DNA of 64,000 bases from a virus (Duplodnaviria; Caudoviricetes). The translations under genes and the position numbers were made by a program. Position 1 is the stretch's first letter. Each line of letters opens with the position of its first letter. The DNA lies in the IMG/VR virus record IMGVR_UViG_3300010163_000009, positions 1 to 64,000 of that record; one strand, 5' to 3'. Under the pieces are notes generated by a model. The model was not told where the DNA came from. It made no database searches and saw only the letters and a list, made by a program, of their open reading frames with translations. Below, piece by piece: positions 308 through 50,029 of this stretch.

Positions 308-896
308 GTTTGCCTTTCTTGTTATGGATTTCACGCATATCCTGTTTCATTTGTTCAACAAGTTCAATTGCAGTGGTATTAAAGTTTTCAACAACATACA
401 GCAAATCTTTGACATCGCATCGCTTTTCCAGTAAGGCCAAGCAAGCAGGCAGTGATTTTACCGTTTCCTTCTGTCCATGAAAAGGATCAAAGCATATAGT
501 CTTGTTACCGAAACTTACTTCTACCTTATATATAGATCCACGTACATATTTAGTGGTAATAGTAGCTTTGAACTGTCTGGGATTTGCTTCAATGGCGATA
601 TAGCCCGGAATATAATCTTCACCGGTTTCCTTGTTCTTGACCTTTTTCATCGGTATGAGTACACAATCATACAGTACTTTGGGGAGTATGTGGCTTGACA
701 TCTCCCGGTCAACAATGACAATCTTTTTGGGATAAGGGGAATCTTGACGTACTCCGCTTACAACGCCATTTACAGGATTCTGGGAAACAAAACTGATAAG
801 CGCCTCATTCTTCTCGGATTTAATAAACTTGAGCATCGTGTATATTTTTTCCACACCAGCTCCGTTTGTTTCGATTTTGTTGGTATCTTGTTCCAT
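276..896 (-). CDS. Hypothetical protein
   Basis: 206-aa ORF downstream of a TAnnTTTG element; overlaps the RNase H start. Confidence 0.75.
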   Translation of the reverse strand: MEQDTNKIETNGAGVEKIYTMLKFIKSEKNEALISFVSQNPVNGVVSGVRQDSPYPKKIVIVDREMSSHILPKVLYDCVLIPMKKVKNKETGEDYIPGYIAIEANPRQFKATITTKYVRGSIYKVEVSFGNKTICFDPFHGQKETVKSLPACLALLEKRCDVKDLLYVVENFNTTAIELVEQMKQDMREIHNKKGKHEKTSRGNRY

Positions 897-961
897 CGTG
901 ACTATTATGATTATTCAAAATAAAAATACCACTGAACCGCAATTAGTGCGACCCAGTGGTA

Positions 962-969
962 CAAAGTTA
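962..969 (-). promoter_or_regulatory. Bacteroidetes housekeeping promoter -7 element
   Basis: TAACTTTG on the minus strand, upstream of the 896 ORF. Confidence 0.6.
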
Positions 970-1141
970 GATTATAAAAGCCGAATTTTAGCGGTTTTTG
1001 ATAATGAATTTTTGTATTAAATGCTGATAATCAATCGTTTAATATTAAGTTGAAATTGATACTCAAATTAAATATAATCGCTTTAATTCAGCTTATTAAA
1101 CAGGTCACGGTTACATCGTTTTCCTGTTAAGACGAAAAAAA

Positions 1142-1447
1142 TCAATAATCCATTTCTTTTTCTGCTTTTATACGTTCTATGTTCGGCAAATCAAGTACTC
1201 CATCGTCATTTCGGTAGTCAATGATACACACTTCGGTACCATCGCTTCCCAATAAAGAAAGGACTGGTAGATCATCTGGCATGATGCCTACACCGGATTC
1301 TAAAACGTGAATGGTTGATAACGATTTTAACGCTCGATTGACATCTTCTCCCAGAACCATATATTGTCCCGGAATATGATAAAGAATGAGCGCTTTAGGG
1401 TGCAACGCTTTGTAATAGTCATGCACTTCAATTTGTTTTGCGTTCAT
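1142..1447 (-). CDS. Small MutS domain I-like protein
   Basis: YYKALHPKALILYHIPGQYMVLGEDV resembles the MutS N-terminus pattern Y..K..YPDAILLFRVGDFYE.FGEDA. Confidence 0.5.
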   Translation of the reverse strand: MNAKQIEVHDYYKALHPKALILYHIPGQYMVLGEDVNRALKSLSTIHVLESGVGIMPDDLPVLSLLGSDGTEVCIIDYRNDDGVLDLPNIERIKAEKEMDY

Positions 1448-1458
1448 ATCGATAATGA

Positions 1459-1821
1459 TTATAGTTTAATGCTATCTACTGCACATTTCTCACATAGACC
1501 ATTGAATCTCTTACGCTCACTTTGAGAAATCTCTTTATTGCATTTTGAGCAATAGTACACTGGTCGCTTTCGATGAAATAAAAAACCCCTCACTTTCTGA
1601 GGGGTTAGACCATATTTGTTTGAAATAGCCTGAAGAATGAGCTTCGGTAATGCTTTTGTCGTTTTTCGCTGGGTGTGATATTCATATTCCAAAACCATAC
1701 GAATTGCGACATCATTGGCGAGCAATCCTAAAGCATCAAGTTTCTGAAGGTCAACCGCAGGAAATCCGGTTACGGCAGAAAGCTTATTGTACTCATCGTC
1801 TGAAAATTGGAAACGTCTCAT
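1459..1821 (-). CDS. Putative DNA-binding protein (HTH-like plus C-terminal Zn finger)
   Basis: AISNKYGLTPQKVRGFLF helix-turn-helix-like segment; CSKC...CEKC. Confidence 0.55.
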   Translation of the reverse strand: MRRFQFSDDEYNKLSAVTGFPAVDLQKLDALGLLANDVAIRMVLEYEYHTQRKTTKALPKLILQAISNKYGLTPQKVRGFLFHRKRPVYYCSKCNKEISQSERKRFNGLCEKCAVDSIKL

Positions 1822-2078
1822 GGCTTCTTGGTTTTTTGCTTTTTCTTAGGATTTGCAAACTCTTCAATTTTGCTTCGTATTTTGTCTATAGAATCTACAA
1901 ATTCATCAAGGGTGTCCATTGCATCCTGCATGGAAAATCCCCTGGAAGATTCTTGAAGACTTTCCGGAAGTGAATACAATGCGTCTTCTTCATCATTCCT
2001 GATTTCACCAATTCTGTCGATTGCTTCATCCAATAGTTCTGTGACTTCCAGTAATTCTTCTCTTCGTTCTTTGTTCAT
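1818..2078 (-). CDS. Hypothetical helical phage protein
   Basis: 86-aa ORF; stop overlaps the next start. Confidence 0.7.
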   Translation of the reverse strand: MNKERREELLEVTELLDEAIDRIGEIRNDEEDALYSLPESLQESSRGFSMQDAMDTLDEFVDSIDKIRSKIEEFANPKKKQKTKKP

Positions 2079-2089
2079 TAAAATGCTTA

Positions 2090-2557
2090 TTATATTTCTA
2101 TCTTCATTTCAAGAGTATCAGCCAGCTTCAAGAATGTGTCAATCCTTAAATCACATCGTCCATCCTCAAAAGCCTCCAAAACTGATATATAAGTGGATGA
2201 TTGTTTAGCCAGATCCCGTATAGACAATCCGGCAGACATACGGATTGCAATTATTGCTTTCCTCAAACCGTCTATATTATCAGTAGAATATGTGACATCG
2301 CGCCCTTTGATTTCCATGCTTGTACCACACATTTTAAGATATAAGAACACATTTTCCATGACATAATCAAATGTGCCTTTCTCAAGGGCGTCTACCTTAT
2401 TTTTATTAAGTTGGAGGGCGTAAGGCAAACTGTCTTTTAGCCTTACTTGTGCCTTATTCTTTAATTTTACAAGTTTAGTACTAAATTCTGAACGATTCAT
2501 ATCAATTTGTTTTAATTTAATCTTTATGATTTTTATAATAGGGTATAGCCACTTCAC
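2090..2557 (-). CDS. XRE-family HTH protein (likely start MNRSEF at 2500)
   Basis: IRMSAGLSIRDLAKQSSTYISVLEAFEDGRCDLRIDTFLKLADTL matches the Cro/C1 HTH pattern. Confidence 0.75.
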   Translation of the reverse strand: MKWLYPIIKIIKIKLKQIDMNRSEFSTKLVKLKNKAQVRLKDSLPYALQLNKNKVDALEKGTFDYVMENVFLYLKMCGTSMEIKGRDVTYSTDNIDGLRKAIIAIRMSAGLSIRDLAKQSSTYISVLEAFEDGRCDLRIDTFLKLADTLEMKIEI

Positions 2558-2933
2558 ATATAAGCCCTATAATAATTCCTGCAAAAATGGTAATAAGTAA
2601 AGTTGCTTCAAATTCATGGTTGAGTCCCCAAAAAAAGAAAATAATGCACGCGGCAATTATATGAAACACAACAGCTACGATTAAAGACCATTTTATTACT
2701 TTAAAATATAACGTAATCAGAGGATGCCAAAATTGGTTTTGGGGTAACGTTTTTTCAGTCTTAATGTTTGCGACAATGCACAGGAAGCAACCTATGAGAA
2801 TAACCGGCAAAGCAGACAACGCTATTTGCATTACAGCTCCTTCGTTATAAAAGATAGGCAAAGACAACGGTAGCATAAACAGAATCCCAATATTTATTAA
2901 GGCTTTGCCTAATGTTAATATTTTTTGACGCAT
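2517..2933 (-). CDS. Membrane protein (about 4 TM)
   Basis: Four long hydrophobic segments. Confidence 0.7.
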   Translation of the reverse strand: MRQKILTLGKALINIGILFMLPLSLPIFYNEGAVMQIALSALPVILIGCFLCIVANIKTEKTLPQNQFWHPLITLYFKVIKWSLIVAVVFHIIAACIIFFFWGLNHEFEATLLITIFAGIIIGLICEVAIPYYKNHKD

Positions 2934-2942
2934 ATCAGTTGA

Positions 2943-3284
2943 TTACATTATGAATTTGTAAGCGAATCCTATAGTAAATGCCATTCCTGGAATAGCAGAT
3001 GCGATTGCCGCAATTATCTTGAACCCTGTTAGCCTTGGAAACAATACACCCGATTTGGACAAGACAAATTTCCAATATAACATAGTTATCAGACCTACAA
3101 TTACACTGATGCCAATGCCTATTAAACCTGATAGTAAGGCATTTATAGACCATGTTTCATTTTTGTCAGTATCTATAAAGATGCCCAAAATGAGAAAAAA
3201 CATCGCAGAAAGCAATGCTCCACTTCCAAAGCCCATAAGTATCAACATCGTGGTATCTACACCATCTTTTTTTTCTTGTTTCAT
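2943..3284 (-). CDS. Membrane protein (about 3 TM); start reassigned to MKQEKK
   Basis: Three hydrophobic segments; the track's longer start lies inside the structured leader. Confidence 0.65.
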   Translation of the reverse strand: MKQEKKDGVDTTMLILMGFGSGALLSAMFFLILGIFIDTDKNETWSINALLSGLIGIGISVIVGLITMLYWKFVLSKSGVLFPRLTGFKIIAAIASAIPGMAFTIGFAYKFIM

Positions 3285-3311
3285 ACTTTCTAAATTATAT
3301 TTGTATAGACA

Positions 3312-3460
3312 CAAGAAAAGTGGGCTGCCATCCATGCAAATCTGTGGGCATCGCCAAACGCCTATATGTACGCACGGGTAGGCAGCCCACGTATATGAGC
3401 TGTCTCCGTGCCTCGTACATATTTGTTTAAATTGGCGATTTAACAGATTTGAGGCACTTT
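3312..3460 (-). promoter_or_regulatory. Structured 5' leader with alternative pairings (attenuator-like)
   Basis: Six complementary segment pairs between the promoter at 3494-3501 and the ATG at 3284; one stem is followed by a U-rich tract on the minus strand. Confidence 0.6.
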
Positions 3461-3563: not shown

Positions 3564-3800
3564 TCAGATTGTTACAGTTACGGTCTTACGTAGTTCACCG
3601 GTGTACCCATGTGACCTCAGTGCTTTTAGCAACAAATCTACTGGAACCAATTGAGCGGTATCATCGTCTTCCAGGACCAGTGAAGCCTTAAAAGCAGAAT
3701 ATTCCGGGCACATACTTTTATTTGCCATCGGGCATTTGTCTCTGTGTGACGCCTTTCTGTAAGTACAATCTTTACAGAATTGCCTAAGCCTTTCATTCAT
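3564..3800 (-). CDS. Small Cys-rich protein with C-terminal LRxxGYTGEL module
   Basis: CKDC..C..C plus DLLLKALRSHGYTGELRKTVTVTI. Confidence 0.7.
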   Translation of the reverse strand: MNERLRQFCKDCTYRKASHRDKCPMANKSMCPEYSAFKASLVLEDDDTAQLVPVDLLLKALRSHGYTGELRKTVTVTI

Positions 3801-3979
3801 ACGTTCACTACTTTTACGAGTCTGAGTTCTCCATTATAACCACGACGCCTGAGTTCTCCAAACAGGTTCTCGTCACTGAAGTCGGCCAAGCTGAGAATTG
3901 CTTTATTCCCAGGCTGGGGTTGATACTCTTTGGGGCGAACTTCATCTTTTTTCGGTGTTTTTTTACTTGTTGTTGCCAT
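3797..3979 (-). CDS. Small protein with ELRRRGYxGEL module
   Basis: FSDENLFGELRRRGYNGELRLVKVVNV; the module is shared with the 3564 and 25679 ORFs. Confidence 0.7.
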   Translation of the reverse strand: MATTSKKTPKKDEVRPKEYQPQPGNKAILSLADFSDENLFGELRRRGYNGELRLVKVVNV

Positions 3980-12596: not shown

Positions 12597-13310
12597 TTAT
12601 AGTTTGATTAAGCCTGTATAAACAGGAGTGAGTTCATTGACATGTGCTTCTGCTTCACCTAAAGGAGAAACAAGACGCACAATTGCGTCAATGAAAAACT
12701 CATTTTGGCCTCTTGTCAACTCTCCATGTTCATCAAAACTAAATGGGGTATGACAAACTTCATATTCGCCTGATGCCTTTCCAGATGGGTCGTACCACCA
12801 GACCTTTGCGCCCGGTTTGATAAAGCGGTAATAATATGCCGTATCTTCATCATCCATTTCTTCAATTTTGGTCTCAGGATAGCACCAATCAAGTAGGCTG
12901 AAAAGTGCATCGCACCATTCCCGATTGCCACAACAGAGTTTGAGAAGGTCATTGTGAGTATAAAAACCGCAATCTTCACCACCACATTCGTATTCAATGC
13001 CATTGATTGTTACTGCGGCATCCTCTCCAGCATATTCCGGAACATAGCAAGGCGCATCCCAATCATCTTTGTAAGCCTCACAATCTTTGAAGATAAAGCC
13101 ATTGTCACTGTGACCAAATAAAAAGTATGGCTGGTGATTATGCCAATGGACTTCTCCTATATCTGCTATCCTTTTAACTTCCATTATAGTTTTATCAATT
13201 GGGCTTATGGACAATTCAATGCGTTGATCGGGTTCATGGAAAATTGGAGGCTTACTTCCCCAATGCTCCATGAATACCTTATCAAACGGTTTGGCTACTT
13301 TGTTCTCCAT
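12597..13310 (-). CDS. Hypothetical protein
   Basis: 237-aa acidic ORF. Confidence 0.7.
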   Translation of the reverse strand: MENKVAKPFDKVFMEHWGSKPPIFHEPDQRIELSISPIDKTIMEVKRIADIGEVHWHNHQPYFLFGHSDNGFIFKDCEAYKDDWDAPCYVPEYAGEDAAVTINGIEYECGGEDCGFYTHNDLLKLCCGNREWCDALFSLLDWCYPETKIEEMDDEDTAYYYRFIKPGAKVWWYDPSGKASGEYEVCHTPFSFDEHGELTRGQNEFFIDAIVRLVSPLGEAEAHVNELTPVYTGLIKL

Positions 13311-41150: not shown

Positions 41151-42479
41151 ATGGCTAAAGCAGAATTATCAGATAAATCACTTGTTACTCAGCAACTGGA
41201 AAGCGTATTTATGACCAGTAAGAAGAGTGTGCAAGAATATGTTAGGGAAATTGAGCGTAGGTGTCGGTTTCAATCTTCCTATCGACACTTACAAAATGGT
41301 ACGGTGCTGGATGACCGTAGCCGTTTAATAGATATATATGAAGCTTGTGTTCAGCAAGATGCACATTTACGAGGTGTTATGGAAACACTCTTTTCTCAGA
41401 TTGTAGGTGAAAGGTTTATGATGGCTAAGCAGAATGAGAAAGGGAAATACTCTAAAGACATATCTGCAACTCGAAAAATTCAGAATACGGAGTTCTTGAA
41501 AATCATACATGGTATCGCAGAATCAAAATTATATGGCTATACCGGGCTTGAATTTTTTGTTGACCCCAGTGCAGAGCGTGGTGGACTTAAAGTGAATTTC
41601 GTCGAGCGTCGAAATATTTTGGCAGATCAACGCAGGATTGTACAGCGTCAAGGTATTTGGATGCCTCAATGGAGTTTTGATGATCCAAAATATTCAGATC
41701 ATTATGTATTAATCAATAGTGGTGAGCTTGGACTGTTTTCGGCTGTTGCTCCTTTGATTTTGGCGAAAAAGTTCACATTTGCCAACTATGTAAACTTTTC
41801 GCATACTTACGGTCAACCTATTATTCATGGGAAAACTGAATCTGAAAATACCGTTGACCGCAAGCGTATGGCAAATGATATTGCAAGCGCAGCTCAGAAT
41901 AAGGTTATTGTTACCGGATTAAATGATGAAGTGGATATAAAGACGTTCACTATGTCTAATTCTGAGCATGTGTTTACAGGCTTAATCTCCATCGTTGACA
42001 AGGATGTTTCTAATCTTATTCTTGGCTCTGAGTCAATGGCCGGAGCAACACAGTCGTATGTTGGAGCAACAAGAGCGCATGAGAATATTTTTCGCGACCG
42101 TATAGAAGTTTATCGTGATTACATTGAACTTGTAATGAACGAGACTATCATACCTCGTTTAGTCCGGCTTGGCTATCTTCCGGATGGGTTGGAGTTCAAA
42201 TATTCAAAGCGTATTGAGATGTCTGACGAAGACCGCATACGTTTATTCCAGAATCTTACTACGTCATGGGAAATGGATCCGGAGACCATTGAGCAAGAAT
42301 TTGGTGTTAAGGTAAAACGACAACTTAACGTAATGGACGGTATGACAAGTGGTCCAGCTGGAGGTGGTGGCAGTGGTTATAGTCGTACTGCTACTCGTCA
42401 TCTTACTGATGAAGAATATTTCCGTCGATATGGTCATGCTCGTGAAACCAAAAATTTTCTTCGGGAGAGAGGGAAATAG
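41151..42479 (+). CDS. Portal protein (DUF935/Mu gp29-like)
   Basis: First gene of the head module; DAHLRGV, YGYTGLEF, YGQPIIHGK, ILGSE, ETIIPRLVRLG pattern. Confidence 0.8.
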   Translation: MAKAELSDKSLVTQQLESVFMTSKKSVQEYVREIERRCRFQSSYRHLQNGTVLDDRSRLIDIYEACVQQDAHLRGVMETLFSQIVGERFMMAKQNEKGKYSKDISATRKIQNTEFLKIIHGIAESKLYGYTGLEFFVDPSAERGGLKVNFVERRNILADQRRIVQRQGIWMPQWSFDDPKYSDHYVLINSGELGLFSAVAPLILAKKFTFANYVNFSHTYGQPIIHGKTESENTVDRKRMANDIASAAQNKVIVTGLNDEVDIKTFTMSNSEHVFTGLISIVDKDVSNLILGSESMAGATQSYVGATRAHENIFRDRIEVYRDYIELVMNETIIPRLVRLGYLPDGLEFKYSKRIEMSDEDRIRLFQNLTTSWEMDPETIEQEFGVKVKRQLNVMDGMTSGPAGGGGSGYSRTATRHLTDEEYFRRYGHARETKNFLRERGK

Positions 42480-42496
42480 GTCCGCCCCCTCTCTCC
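42452..42496 (+). other. Putative -1 frameshift signal (portal to MuF-like protein)
   Basis: In-frame A_AAT_TTT heptamer, 5-nt spacer, perfect 10-bp stem GGAGAGAGGG/CCCTCTCTCC. Confidence 0.7.
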
Positions 42497-42508
42497 AAAA
42501 TAGTTGCG

Positions 42509-43363
42509 TTGCGACAGCCTGATGACAGTAAGGACCGGCATGAAGAAGAGGTTGCTATTCTCCTTCCTTTATTCCATGATTTTGTGATTAGTGTGGTAAT
42601 CCATGAAGATGAATGGGAATCGCTGGAAGCGCTTATGGAAGCTCGTGCTGATATTGCTATTCGGAGAGCGTGTGCCGGATTCGGCATTGACTTTGAGGAG
42701 GCACTGCGGCTGATTCGTAATGCTGACGGACTTGATAGCGAGCAAATAGCTCAACGCAATATTGTTTTGTCCGCAGTTGATAATATGGTTGACTTTGCTG
42801 TAGCTGAAGAATATCAAATGGCTGATGATATGGCAGAGTTAGAAGAATTGTTAACTGAAGAGGAGGAGATGGAAGATGAAGATTGGTTTGAATTTTACTT
42901 GCCGGTCTTTTCCAAATTTCACGATCAATATATGCGGACCGAGAATATGGACATCGAGTATTCTATGATCATCGCAGCTTATCTGTCAACGATAAGAGAA
43001 GATACAGTATTGATGTATATGACTCAAGGCGATGAACGGGTACGCCCGTGGCATCTTCAATATGAAGGTTTTACTGCTCCAAAATCAAGATTTCCAGCAT
43101 GGCTTATTCCTCCTATTGAGCATCAATGTCGATGTTATCTTATAGAAGATACAGAAACGGTTTTTGCTTCTATTAAAGCATCGACAATCCCGGAAATGCC
43201 AGATTGGTTTAATCGTACATTCAAAGAAAGCGTGGCTTTGGGTGGCCGCATTTTTTCTGATGAACATCCATATTTTCAAGTTGATGAGCGGCATGTTGGC
43301 CGTCTCAATGCCATAGCAAAGCGTATTAAAGCAAAGTATTTGGAAGATGGCGAAGAACAATAG
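42509..43363 (+). CDS. Head morphogenesis protein (Mu gpF/SPP1 gp7-like)
   Basis: YMTQGDERVRPWH...PPIEHQCRC; only a weak TTG start. Confidence 0.8.
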   Translation: MRQPDDSKDRHEEEVAILLPLFHDFVISVVIHEDEWESLEALMEARADIAIRRACAGFGIDFEEALRLIRNADGLDSEQIAQRNIVLSAVDNMVDFAVAEEYQMADDMAELEELLTEEEEMEDEDWFEFYLPVFSKFHDQYMRTENMDIEYSMIIAAYLSTIREDTVLMYMTQGDERVRPWHLQYEGFTAPKSRFPAWLIPPIEHQCRCYLIEDTETVFASIKASTIPEMPDWFNRTFKESVALGGRIFSDEHPYFQVDERHVGRLNAIAKRIKAKYLEDGEEQ

Positions 43364-44658: not shown

Positions 44659-45930
44659 ATGGATGCAGAAAATTTGAAATATGTAGTTGGTAGGGCTGAG
44701 GAAGGTCGGCCAGCTATCATTCGTTTTTTTTCAGCTGTAGATGAGTATAGTGTTCGTTGTTTTAACGATGAATTTTTGTGGTTGCAAGACTATGTAAAGC
44801 CTTCAAAGATTATCGTAATGATTAACTCTGAAGGAGGCTCTGTGCTGTACGGAATGAGCACGTTCTCAGTCATCCGCTCTTGTCCGATTGAAGTTGATTG
44901 TGTGATAGAAGGCATTGCTGCTTCAATGGCCAGTGTTATTTGGGCTGCTGGTGACAATCTTTATATGCACGATTATTCATTGCTGATGATTCACAATCCT
45001 TTTAACACAAACGTGGAAGATGCTGACCCATCAGTGAAGCAAACTGTTGAAGCATTCCGATCACAACTGGAAACTATCTACACTAAACGGTTTGGACTTG
45101 CCAAAGACAAGGTTGCAGAAATTATGAACGGCGAAGGCGATGCCGACGGCACGTTCTTTAGCGCTAAGGACGCTGTTAAGGCAGGGTTCCTCCCTTCGGA
45201 GAATGTTATCAAGACCTCTAAAAAGGTACGAGACAAAGTGAAAAGCGAAATGATAGGCATTGATAACGCAGCAGATATGCGCAACATCATGTCAGCCGTA
45301 TCTGCCGAGGTCGATGAAAATAAACTTATCGAAGCTATTTGTGCTATTCGTAATCAGACAGATAATAATTATTCACCAATCCAAGAAAACAAAATGGAAA
45401 ATAACGAAAAAAACAATTTCGACGCCATTTCAGCACAACTTGGACTCGCTAAGGACACTCAGGCCGCAGCGATTGAAGCTCGCATTGCTGAGTTGATCAA
45501 TGCAGAAGCAGCACTCAAGGAAACTCAGAGTGAGCTCACTGCTACGAAGATCAAACTTGAAGGCAAGGAAGCCGAACTCGCTAACGCCAACAGCGAAATT
45601 ACCGAGACTAAGGCAGCGCTTCAGGCGTACAAGGATGCAGAGCAAGCAGCTCGCACAGCCGAGATTGAAGCCGTTATCGACGATGCAATCAAGGCAGGTA
45701 AAATTGAGGCTTCTGCAAAAGATGCTTGGACTAAGATGGCTGAGTCTGACTTCGCCACCGTAAAGAGCACTCTTGCATCAATCCAAGCACGTGAAAAAAT
45801 CACAGAGAAAATCGCTGAAGACCCGGAAAACGTGGCCAAGATTGAGGACACCATGAAAGATGTGGATGCCAAAATGAAGGAGGCCATCAAGGAACATCTG
45901 GGTGAGGTGAAATTCGAGAAATTTGACTAA
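44659..45930 (+). CDS. ClpP-like prohead protease fused to scaffold
   Basis: INSEGGSV, GIAASMASVI, LMIHNP; C-terminal coiled coil. Confidence 0.9.
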   Translation: MDAENLKYVVGRAEEGRPAIIRFFSAVDEYSVRCFNDEFLWLQDYVKPSKIIVMINSEGGSVLYGMSTFSVIRSCPIEVDCVIEGIAASMASVIWAAGDNLYMHDYSLLMIHNPFNTNVEDADPSVKQTVEAFRSQLETIYTKRFGLAKDKVAEIMNGEGDADGTFFSAKDAVKAGFLPSENVIKTSKKVRDKVKSEMIGIDNAADMRNIMSAVSAEVDENKLIEAICAIRNQTDNNYSPIQENKMENNEKNNFDAISAQLGLAKDTQAAAIEARIAELINAEAALKETQSELTATKIKLEGKEAELANANSEITETKAALQAYKDAEQAARTAEIEAVIDDAIKAGKIEASAKDAWTKMAESDFATVKSTLASIQAREKITEKIAEDPENVAKIEDTMKDVDAKMKEAIKEHLGEVKFEKFD

Positions 45931-45945
45931 TCCCAATTAACCAAC

Positions 45946-47037
45946 ATGGCAACAATCAATTTTGCCGGTAACACTTACGCGGGTGAGGTTCTTGAAGACC
46001 TCCTTGTTTATACCGCGAAGGGAAATGAGACCTATGAGGCTGGTCTTGTTCATGTGAAGCCCGGTATTCAGAAACGTTACGTTTTGCCTCACATTCAGCT
46101 GGGTTCGATTATTCAGGATAACAAGCCCACGCCTACTTCTACTGAAGGAGCTGCCAATGATGACACTGGCTTTAACCAGTATAAACTCTCTGAGCGTTAT
46201 CTCGACCCTCAGGACTTTATGGTCTATTTGGAGTTCAATCCCCGTGACTTTGAGGAGTATTGGCGTTTCGCTCAGCCGGAAGGTCCGCTGGTTTTCCGTG
46301 AACTGGCTCCTGAGGTTCAGAAGACCATGCTTCGTCTGCTTCTGGACAAGAAAGATCAGTATATCAACGACTGCATCTGGTGTGGTAAGAAGGGTGGCGT
46401 AGATGCCAACATCGCCGGCCCTGCCAATGGCACTCAGCTTGGTGGTGCGACTTCTGCCGGTTTGATGAAGTATTTTGACGGTGCTCTCGCTCGTGTACTC
46501 GCCAATTTCAAAGCCCAGGCGGCTGTATCTGCCGGTACTGCAACTGATGCAGACAAGAACGAGGTAGCTTCCGGTAAAGTTATCCTCGCCGGTTCAACAG
46601 AGTTCAAGGATGGTAAGGACGTTGAAGACGCTCTCTATGCTATCTGGATGAAAACTCCGGCACATGTCCGTAAATCCAAGAAGCTCAAGTTCGTCATGGG
46701 CTGGGATGTATGGGATACGTATGACCAGTACCTGACAACTCAGAAAGAGTTCAAGTATGTTGAGAACCCGGATGTCAATAAGCGCACTTTCAAGGGAAAG
46801 CAGATTGTCGTTATCGATGGCCTGCCTGAGTCAACAATCTTCTTTGGCAAGTTCTCGACCGATCAGGATTCTTGCCTCTGGATGGCAATTGACTACAGCA
46901 CCGATGAAGAGAGCGTAAAGGTTGAGCGTCTTCAGGCCAATTCGGAGATGTATTTCTTCCAGATGCGAATGAAGATGGACATCAATCTGGTTCGTCCCGG
47001 TGAACTGGTAGTGTGGACACCCTACACAAACGCATAA
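45946..47037 (+). CDS. Major capsid protein
   Basis: 363 aa directly after the protease/scaffold; biased codon usage; followed by a terminator. Confidence 0.8.
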   Translation: MATINFAGNTYAGEVLEDLLVYTAKGNETYEAGLVHVKPGIQKRYVLPHIQLGSIIQDNKPTPTSTEGAANDDTGFNQYKLSERYLDPQDFMVYLEFNPRDFEEYWRFAQPEGPLVFRELAPEVQKTMLRLLLDKKDQYINDCIWCGKKGGVDANIAGPANGTQLGGATSAGLMKYFDGALARVLANFKAQAAVSAGTATDADKNEVASGKVILAGSTEFKDGKDVEDALYAIWMKTPAHVRKSKKLKFVMGWDVWDTYDQYLTTQKEFKYVENPDVNKRTFKGKQIVVIDGLPESTIFFGKFSTDQDSCLWMAIDYSTDEESVKVERLQANSEMYFFQMRMKMDINLVRPGELVVWTPYTNA

Positions 47038-49466: not shown

Positions 49467-50029
49467 ATGGAAGAAAAAGAAACCCTTGAACTTCAGGCAA
49501 TCGAAGAAATCGATCCTAAGCTTCGTGCAGCCGTTGAGAAGAAGGTTGCAGACTTGAAAGCAAATAACCCAAAGGCAAAAATTTTCCCGCTCATGGTGGA
49601 TGGTGATCCTGATGACGAGAAAGAAGTGTATATCGGCTATTTCACACAGCCATCGTTTATCACTTTCTCCAAGTACATGACTTTCGCTCAGAAAGATCAA
49701 GTATCTGCTATGCGCCAGCTCGCCCGCGACTGTTTCCTTGATGGAGACCGTGAACTCATTGACGACGATTCTCTGTTCCTTTTCGGTCTTATGGGGCAGT
49801 TAAACAATATAATCCAGATGCGCGGCGGTCGTGTTATAAATTTATCGAAGCCTGGGAAGTAAGAGAGGGCGATTATTTTCGTCAAAAAATAATTCTCTTA
49901 CGACATTACTTTCCAGGCATCAATATCGATGACCTTGACGAAGAAGAATTTGCCAGACTTGTCTGTGACGCAGAATGGATGCACAGCCAAATGGTTATCA
50001 CAAGACATGCAAATGCTTTAGGATTATAA
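49467..50029 (+). CDS. Tail assembly chaperone (49467-49862) with -1 frameshift extension to 50029
   Basis: A_AAT_TTA at 49838-49844; the -1 frame is open (IEAWEVREGDYFRQK...ALGL*); lies just before the tape measure gene. Confidence 0.8.

Follow-up and report, generated by a model that had tools for sequence, protein, structure and literature searches.

A probable programmed −1 ribosomal frameshift at the junction of portal and MuF-like genes in Bacteroidales phages

In retroviruses and totiviruses, a −1 shift on a slippery heptamer with an RNA structure extends a structural protein to give Gag-Pol. In phage SPP1, free gp7 binds the inner face of the portal ring, and the annotation of actinobacteriophages has 'portal and MuF-like fusion protein' among its accepted terms. 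The portal-adjacent gene context has been used to define the MuF superfamily (PMC5576092). Within tailed phages, the G/GT −1 frameshift is found in lambda and in the majority of long-tailed phages (Levin et al. 1993; Xu, Hendrix & Duda 2004; cited in PMC5009743 and PMC7911831), and frameshift-extended capsid proteins are represented by 10A/10B of T7 and by the major head protein of Lactobacillus phage A2 (Garcia et al. 2004; cited in PMC10885494). Here the junction between the portal gene and a downstream MuF-like gene was analysed in a sequence of 64,000 nucleotides (nt) from a gut phage of Bacteroidales (Caudoviricetes), comprising positions 1 to 64,000 of IMG/VR virus record IMGVR_UViG_3300010163_000009 and referred to below as the window. 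Comparison of this junction with those of its relatives makes it very probable that the site is a programmed −1 ribosomal frameshift, which would make a portal-MuF protein of 737 amino acids (aa).

The junction comprises the following features, all on the + strand.

41151..42479, +: portal open reading frame (ORF), zero frame, 442 aa, stop TAG at 42477-42479, PF06074 Portal_Mu with an E-value of 8e-44
42443..42445, +: upstream stop of the −1 frame (TGA), from the translation
42452..42458, +: slippery heptamer A_AAT_TTT, in phase with the portal ORF, at Asn435-Phe436
42459..42463, +: spacer CTTCG, 5 nt, between heptamer and stem
42464..42496, +: predicted stimulatory hairpin with a perfect 10-base-pair stem (arms 42464-42473 and 42487-42496), from folding and covariation
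42458..42532, +: linker of about 25 codons read only in the −1 frame (SSGEREIGPPPLSKIVALRQPDD...), with no conserved start codon
42458..43363, +: −1-frame part of the predicted transframe product, MuF/SPP1 gp7-like, 301 aa, stop at 43361-43363

The 3' end of the portal gene reads AAA AAT TTT CTT CGG GAG AGA GGG AAA TAG. A reading of the window made from the sequence alone (the sequence-only reading) had proposed a recoding site here, and the in-phase heptamer at 42452-42458, the 5-nt spacer and the perfect 10-base-pair stem that it described are all present. It was also correct that the −1 frame runs without a stop into a MuF-like ORF whose only start is a TTG: from 42446 onwards the first stop in this frame is that at 43361-43363, and the first canonical start in it is the TTG at 42509. 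The −1 frame is closed at 42443-42445, which confines any fusion-making shift to the 34 nt from 42446 to 42479, where the heptamer lies. In four relatives (L006, L042, L051 and L066), a −1-frame stop lies immediately 5' of the AAA of the heptamer and thus pins the shift site in these lineages. The predicted transframe product, join(41151..42458, 42458..43363), comprises 436 + 301 = 737 aa. By a rough estimate, one in-phase X_XXY_YYZ is expected by chance within the 11-codon overlap at a frequency of about 4% (11/256), which is not rare; the significance of the heptamer therefore lies in its conservation. The H_HH.U_UU.Y motif class, to which A_AAU_UUU belongs, is listed as one of the most efficient for E. 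coli (PMC4066793).

Related loci were gathered from viral contigs (80), bacterial assemblies (72) and several GenBank or assembly records, giving about 155. The bacterial hosts are almost all Bacteroidales, including Prevotellaceae, Muribaculaceae, Bacteroidaceae, Rikenellaceae, Tannerellaceae, Dysgonomonadaceae and others. The census of their junctions gave the following states.

116 loci: MuF in the −1 frame, with an in-phase AAATTTT
15 loci: MuF in the +1 frame, with its own ATG
2 loci: MuF in frame past the portal stop, with its own ATG
4 loci: MuF in the −1 frame without the heptamer
3 loci: in-frame fusion
13 loci: no MuF match, one of these being a contig that is cut short but has the signal

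The 116 loci of the first state come from isolates, metagenome bins and viral contigs. Their arrangement spans portal identities from 95% to 49% and MuF identities down to 33% (L143-L148 and L157), and the −1 relation of MuF to the portal has been maintained despite many insertions and deletions (indels) in the portal tail. Downstream of 12 related portals (L070-L073, L112, L127, L128, L131, L133, L135, L137 and L155), no MuF homologue was detected, even with a hidden Markov model of the family. The portals of these 12 loci have no Asn-Phe-Leu tail.

AAATTTT is invariant and in phase in all 116 heptamer-bearing −1-frame loci, which contain 60 distinct contexts. Across these contexts Asn is always encoded by AAT and Phe always by TTT, and the codon before Asn is ACA, AAA, GAA, GCA, GTA, CAA, GGA, TCA or CTA, its final base being A throughout. 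The lineages with a separate MuF gene serve as a control: the portal Asn-Phe/Tyr-Leu motif is retained in 10 of the 11 distinct junctions, its Asn codon being AAC in six and AAT in four and the next codon TTC in six, TTT in one and TAT in three. The base before Asn in the control is A in two junctions, T in two, C in three and G in three, and AAATTTT occurs in none. Lineages in which MuF has its own ATG have lost both the heptamer and the hairpin. The synonymous sites of the heptamer are thus fixed only where MuF lacks a start of its own, which shows that the heptamer is selected as RNA.

The stem arms GGAGAGAGGG (42464-42473) and CCCTCTCTCC (42487-42496) are exact reverse complements, and the portal stop codon lies in the 13-nt loop that they enclose. 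In an ungapped alignment of 35 distinct junctions (A1), the stem starts at column 25 in 35/35 rows, and RNAalifold recovers the same stem, with 90.9% of cells paired, compensatory changes in 8/10 pairs and an observed covariation that is reached in 0/500 shuffles. A covariance model built from A1 gave one match per locus, at the portal end, and matched the 64-kb window once (42440-42513, 80.6 bits). Its 51 distinct hits form a second alignment (A3), in which 89.6% of cells are paired, 9/10 pairs show compensatory changes and 95 cells carry double changes, compared with 32.8 in shuffles (0/500 as high). Examples of stems in relatives are GGAGAGAAGA/TCTTCTCTCC, GGGAGCGGAA/TTCCGCTCCC and AGGGGTGCAT/ATGCACCTCT. 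The predicted folding energy of the 48 nt 3' of the heptamer is −18.3 ± 3.5 kcal/mol across 70 distinct frameshift-state junctions, compared with −4.1 kcal/mol for the same segment in 11 separate-gene junctions and −10.7 kcal/mol in shuffled segments. A role of the hairpin as a terminator was considered and rejected, there being no U-tract 3' of the stem. Conservation of the signal, which the sequence-only reading had named as a check on its proposal, is thus found both in the heptamer of the 116 loci, synonymous positions included, and in the covarying stem. The sequence features of a canonical −1 cassette are all in place: an in-phase X_XXY_YYZ, a structure about 5–9 nt 3' of it, an open coding −1 frame with no conserved start, and conservation beyond that of the amino acids.

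The segment that follows the slip site has the character of coding sequence, with no start codon in a conserved position. In the window, the TTG at 42509 is codon 19 of the MuF frame and the first ATG lies 61 codons past the slip site; the TTG is also present in L006 and L010, and relatives whose portals are 94% identical have TTA in its place. No ATG, GTG or TTG is conserved from the slip site up to the conserved internal Met at codon 61. Codons 8–30 hold none of the three in 39 of the 81 distinct junctions, and several junctions have none before codon 54. The entropy by codon position in linker codons 15–27, past the portal stop, is 1.04/0.79/1.65, compared with 1.22/0.78/1.57 deeper in MuF and 1.18/0.93/1.64 in the portal. 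This third-position variability matches that of coding sequence, and the segment past the portal stop is therefore taken to be translated in the MuF frame. In the predicted structure of the MuF part, residues 1–20 are disordered, with a predicted local distance difference test score (pLDDT) of 40–48, and the first long helix begins at residue 27, so that the first ~20 residues past the slip site look like a linker in the model. Where MuF proteins have their own ATG, they start about 25–30 residues downstream of the slip site. MuF thus has no conserved start of its own in the frameshift-type loci, and lineages with an independent ATG have lost both signals; both results favour the proposal of the sequence-only reading.

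Two further readings of the junction were rejected. A start codon in the hairpin loop does not hold across relatives, in which the codon overlapping the portal stop is ATG, GTA, TTA or others (ATA in the window). Reassignment of the stop codon does not fit the use of TAA, TGA and TAG at that position among relatives, and readthrough of the TAG soon reaches a TGA. In the GenBank record of phage BS-TP1 (L083, PQ571274.1, locus 1200-3424), a separate, truncated MuF coding sequence (CDS) starts 113 nt past the portal stop, inside the conserved N-terminal region; it was probably mis-annotated owing to the missing start codon.

In-frame fusions of the two genes, which the sequence-only reading had suggested seeking in relatives, do occur: the portal-MuF proteins P0001, P0002 and P0003 have 729–763 aa. 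P0001 and P0003 were traced to contigs syntenic with the locus, where an unrelated linker stands in place of the heptamer and hairpin, and the covariance model found no match in the fusion loci L081 and L082. The fused polypeptide is therefore viable in nature. On a tree of 107 distinct portals, the frameshift state is found in 81 and on all major branches, and nested inside it are separate-gene states, of at least three origins, and two in-clade fusions. This distribution suggests that the frameshift state is ancestral in the clade, on a tree rooted at the midpoint only and of unproven polarity. L085 (MT835523.1) was rejected as an in-clade fusion, its portal being very distant on the tree (branch length 10), and stands as an example of fusion elsewhere. 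This unrelated 42-kb gut phage contig carries at 839-3406 a single 855-aa ORF in which Portal_Mu is joined to Phage_Mu_F (53.9 bits) and to a C-terminal domain weakly resembling the CdiA_C toxin (22.8 bits, below the cut-off), a fusion of the portal-MuF-toxin type.

Another junction, L121 (NZ_CAJLKP010000014.1, ~3780-3830), keeps the hairpin (−16.7 kcal/mol) and has MuF in the −1 frame with an ATG just 3' of the stem. Its heptamer position reads G_TCT_TTT, which leaves only a U_UUU_C tetramer. It may be an intermediate between the frameshift and separate-gene states.

In the proposed mechanism, portal and MuF would be read from one late mRNA. Most ribosomes would read AAU-UUU in the zero frame, continue for six further codons and stop at the UAG in the hairpin loop, giving the 442-aa portal. 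Some ribosomes would meet the 10-base-pair, G+C-rich hairpin 5 nt downstream with AAU in the P site and UUU in the A site; a tandem slip back by one base would let tRNA-Asn re-pair with AAA and tRNA-Phe with UUU. The shifted ribosomes would then read a flexible linker of ~25 residues followed by the MuF domain, giving the 737-aa portal-MuF. Frameshift efficiency would determine how much portal-MuF is made relative to portal, and fused subunits would co-assemble into the portal dodecamer. In solved portals the C-terminus faces the capsid interior, and MuF carried by the fusion should therefore sit on the inner side of the portal ring, as free gp7 does in SPP1. MuF might be released later by the ClpP-like head protease encoded at 44659-45930. 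As the sequence-only reading had proposed, we infer that recoding limits MuF to a minority of portal subunits and so sets its stoichiometry.

Several points weigh against a frameshift at this site. The hairpin of the window folds at −24.7 kcal/mol, compared with −18.5 kcal/mol for shuffles, and this single-sequence z-score of −1.9 is only modest. The composition of the stem, purine-rich in its 5' arm and pyrimidine-rich in its 3' arm, favours background pairing: a −2 slide of the stem pairs 80% of cells, and the shuffled segments themselves reach −10.7 kcal/mol. The portal Asn-Phe is itself conserved, which accounts for part of the conservation of the heptamer, although not for that of its synonymous sites. 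Some ATG, GTG or TTG is present in codons 8–30 in 42 of the 81 distinct junctions, including the window with its TTG at 42509, and a free MuF could start at such linker codons. Unless the fusion were cut, a covalent tether would be hard to reconcile with the idea of gp7-like proteins exiting the capsid along with the DNA. The efficiency of the motif class is known from E. coli, and slipperiness on Bacteroidia ribosomes would carry over by analogy. Finally, the support for the shift comes from comparison of sequences.

If MuF were a separate gene, translated from the TTG at 42509 or from another near-cognate codon, perhaps by re-initiation once ribosomes have terminated at the portal stop, the hairpin would serve translational coupling or mRNA stability and the heptamer would be a by-product of Asn-Phe. 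The start codons scattered over the linkers are in keeping with this, as are the BS-TP1 record, which has MuF as its own CDS, and the Asn-Phe-Leu also kept in the portals of separate-MuF lineages. However, the frequency of start codons does not exceed a rough chance estimate of ~0.7 per 25 codons, no start position is conserved, the TTG gives way to TTA in relatives with 94% identical portals, and in 39 of the 81 junctions the stretch ahead of the folded domain holds no start. The periodicity of coding sequence is already evident 5' of any start, and the −1 relation survives many indels of the portal tail. Moreover, the seven positions of the heptamer are invariant, synonymous ones included, whereas the same motif drifts to AAC and TTC where MuF has an ATG. 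We therefore regard a separate gene as very unlikely. It is somewhat easier to envisage, although still unlikely, that both routes operate in this phage, the frameshift giving portal-MuF and weak initiation at the TTG giving some free MuF. The sharing of this codon 19 with L006 and L010 would agree with such an arrangement, and so would the ATG just downstream of the retained hairpin in L121 and the ATG that overlaps the portal stop in Hankyphage p00 (described below), where a T_TTT_TTC and a hairpin are present as well; yet the TTG is not conserved even in close relatives and lies within the predicted disordered linker, 13 nt past the hairpin.

The window has an A5T4 run at the junction, on which an RNA polymerase might slip, and the in-frame fusions of relatives could be taken as a sign that the two ORFs are a decaying fused gene, whether a pseudogene or an assembly error. 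In many relatives, however, the run is no longer than A3T4, below the length at which polymerases are known to slip, and it is phase and identity that are conserved rather than the length of the run. Decay or faulty assembly would hardly leave the same −1 arrangement in 116 loci of varied source, and both ORFs are under purifying selection; transcriptional slippage and decay are accordingly scarcely credible here. A programmed ribosomal frameshift remains the reading by which we would explain the junction.

The identity of the two proteins was assigned by profile and fold searches. The portal scores 150.8 bits with PF06074 Portal_Mu in a profile search, compared with a curated cut-off of 23.9. 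The MuF-like ORF lies directly downstream of the portal gene, which is the gene context of its family, and scores 19.3 bits with PF04233 Phage_Mu_F, below the cut-off of 29.6; over the same region, its orthologue in L084 scores 31.9 bits and others 17.6–29.3, and the distant fused form in L085 scores 53.9 bits. An AlphaFold model of the MuF part, built with 59 orthologues, has a pLDDT of 89 and a predicted template modelling score (pTM) of 0.87. A fold search of BFVD with this model gave 'phage head morphogenesis domain' proteins as all of its top five matches (E-values 8e-8 to 9e-7, template modelling (TM) scores 0.53–0.59), the best of them having an E-value of 8e-8 and a TM score of 0.58. 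Among solved structures, no relatives were found in the PDB by a sequence profile of the 59 orthologues or by Foldseek against the PDB. On the strength of this model and context, the downstream protein is assigned as a MuF/SPP1 gp7-like head morphogenesis protein with a predicted fold like that of other family members.

Further downstream in the head-gene neighbourhood are a ClpP-type protease-scaffold gene (44659-45930) and a capsid-like ORF (45946-47037). The closest cultured relative is the temperate Bacteroides phage BS-TP1 (111.7 kb; host Bacteroides salyersiae BG8), whose portal is 92% and MuF 80% identical. The closest relatives, L086, L087 and L091 (Prevotella sp. MGM2, Palleniella muris NM73_A23 and Muribaculaceae Isolate-002), lie on 116–144-kb contigs of cultured isolates, and two of these contig names give high coverage, 245x and 480x. 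Such contigs would fit an episomal or actively replicating phage better than an integrated prophage.

The canonical tail-chaperone frameshift site of this phage, a positive control for the portal site, lies in the tail genes of the window, upstream of the ORF for a 1411-aa tape measure protein.

49467-49862: tail assembly chaperone ORF, upstream of the tape measure ORF
49838-49844: tail-chaperone heptamer A_AAT_TTA, in phase, with a −1 extension of ~63 codons, to about 50028

The near-identical heptamer that the sequence-only reading had pointed to in this gene is therefore real. A stem 3' of it (region 49838-49920) folds at −28.7 kcal/mol with a z-score of −5.1, and 17/17 relatives keep the heptamer, a −1 extension of 63–72 codons and the stem, with some paired changes. 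This conservation indicates that the phage group uses A_AAU_UUN at the one site where frameshifting is established in tailed phages.

What looks to be a sister site of frameshifting occurs in another group of phages, which are Mu-like. At 13257-13310, on the minus strand, Hankyphage p00 (L177, BK010646.1) has an in-phase T_TTT_TTC near the portal end, with a hairpin, AAAGCCCCG...CGGGGCAGCTTT, 3' of it. The MuF gene there is in the −1 frame, and the ATG annotated as its start overlaps the stop codon of the portal.

Full-text literature searches found no published description of a frameshift at a portal gene, in agreement with the statement of the sequence-only reading that this is not a standard recoding site. 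The word 'portal' is absent from the available text of a large review of recoding (PMC5009743) and of the PRFect paper (PMC10885494), and frameshifting is unmentioned in the paper on the MuF family (PMC5576092) and in that on BS-TP1 (PMC12694917). The mechanism is canonical, and what would be new is its occurrence at the portal/MuF junction. The broader proposition, that a portal-MuF frameshift is ancestral in a large clade of Bacteroidales phages, is the sole route to MuF in many of its lineages, and has a sister T_TTT_TTC site in Hankyphage-type Mu-like phages, seems to us evenly balanced between true and false. If it is true, tailed phages would have, next to the tail chaperone, a second recoding event that is broadly conserved in structural genes, and the number of MuF molecules on the portal would be hard-wired, with possible later release by the head protease. 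The site would add a widely conserved case to the short list of recoding sites known in tailed phages and would correct many annotations of gut phages, such as BS-TP1, that call MuF from arbitrary internal starts. How the low copy number of gp7/MuF at the portal vertex is set becomes testable, frameshift efficiency being the proposed determinant here, and a single clade offers frameshifted, fully fused and separate states for comparison. The site also bears on recoding in Bacteroidia, whose ribosomes ignore Shine-Dalgarno signals and in which, to our knowledge, few −1 sites have been studied.

The nearest parallel is with lambda G/GT, with which the portal site would share a conserved −1 shift on an X_XXY_YYZ heptamer near the 3' end of a morphogenesis gene, a fixed ratio of short to extended product and a downstream ORF without its own start. 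The genes themselves differ, being chaperones there and portal and MuF here; G and GT are absent from virions, whereas both products would be expected in the virion here, and the portal extension is a whole protein of 300 aa that is a stand-alone gene in most phages. Not being next to the tape measure gene, the portal site would work like G/GT without being a member of it. The 10A/10B proteins of T7 and the head protein of A2 likewise depend on a −1 shift near the end of a head gene that yields a second, longer head component, but their extension is a short or decoration-like tail on the major capsid protein, compared with a separate conserved family on the portal here. With Gag-Pol, the site would share a low-frequency functional extension carried into the particle at a ratio given by the frameshift efficiency; that system is eukaryotic, its proteins are unrelated, and its extension is an enzyme freed by the viral protease. 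In SPP1, by contrast, the gp6 portal and gp7, the MuF prototype, associate non-covalently, gp7 has its own start and there is no recoding. The in-frame portal-MuF fusion genes (P0001–P0003 and the 855-aa ORF of MT835523.1) encode the same two-domain polypeptide, but they have no heptamer or hairpin at the junction and place MuF on every portal subunit.

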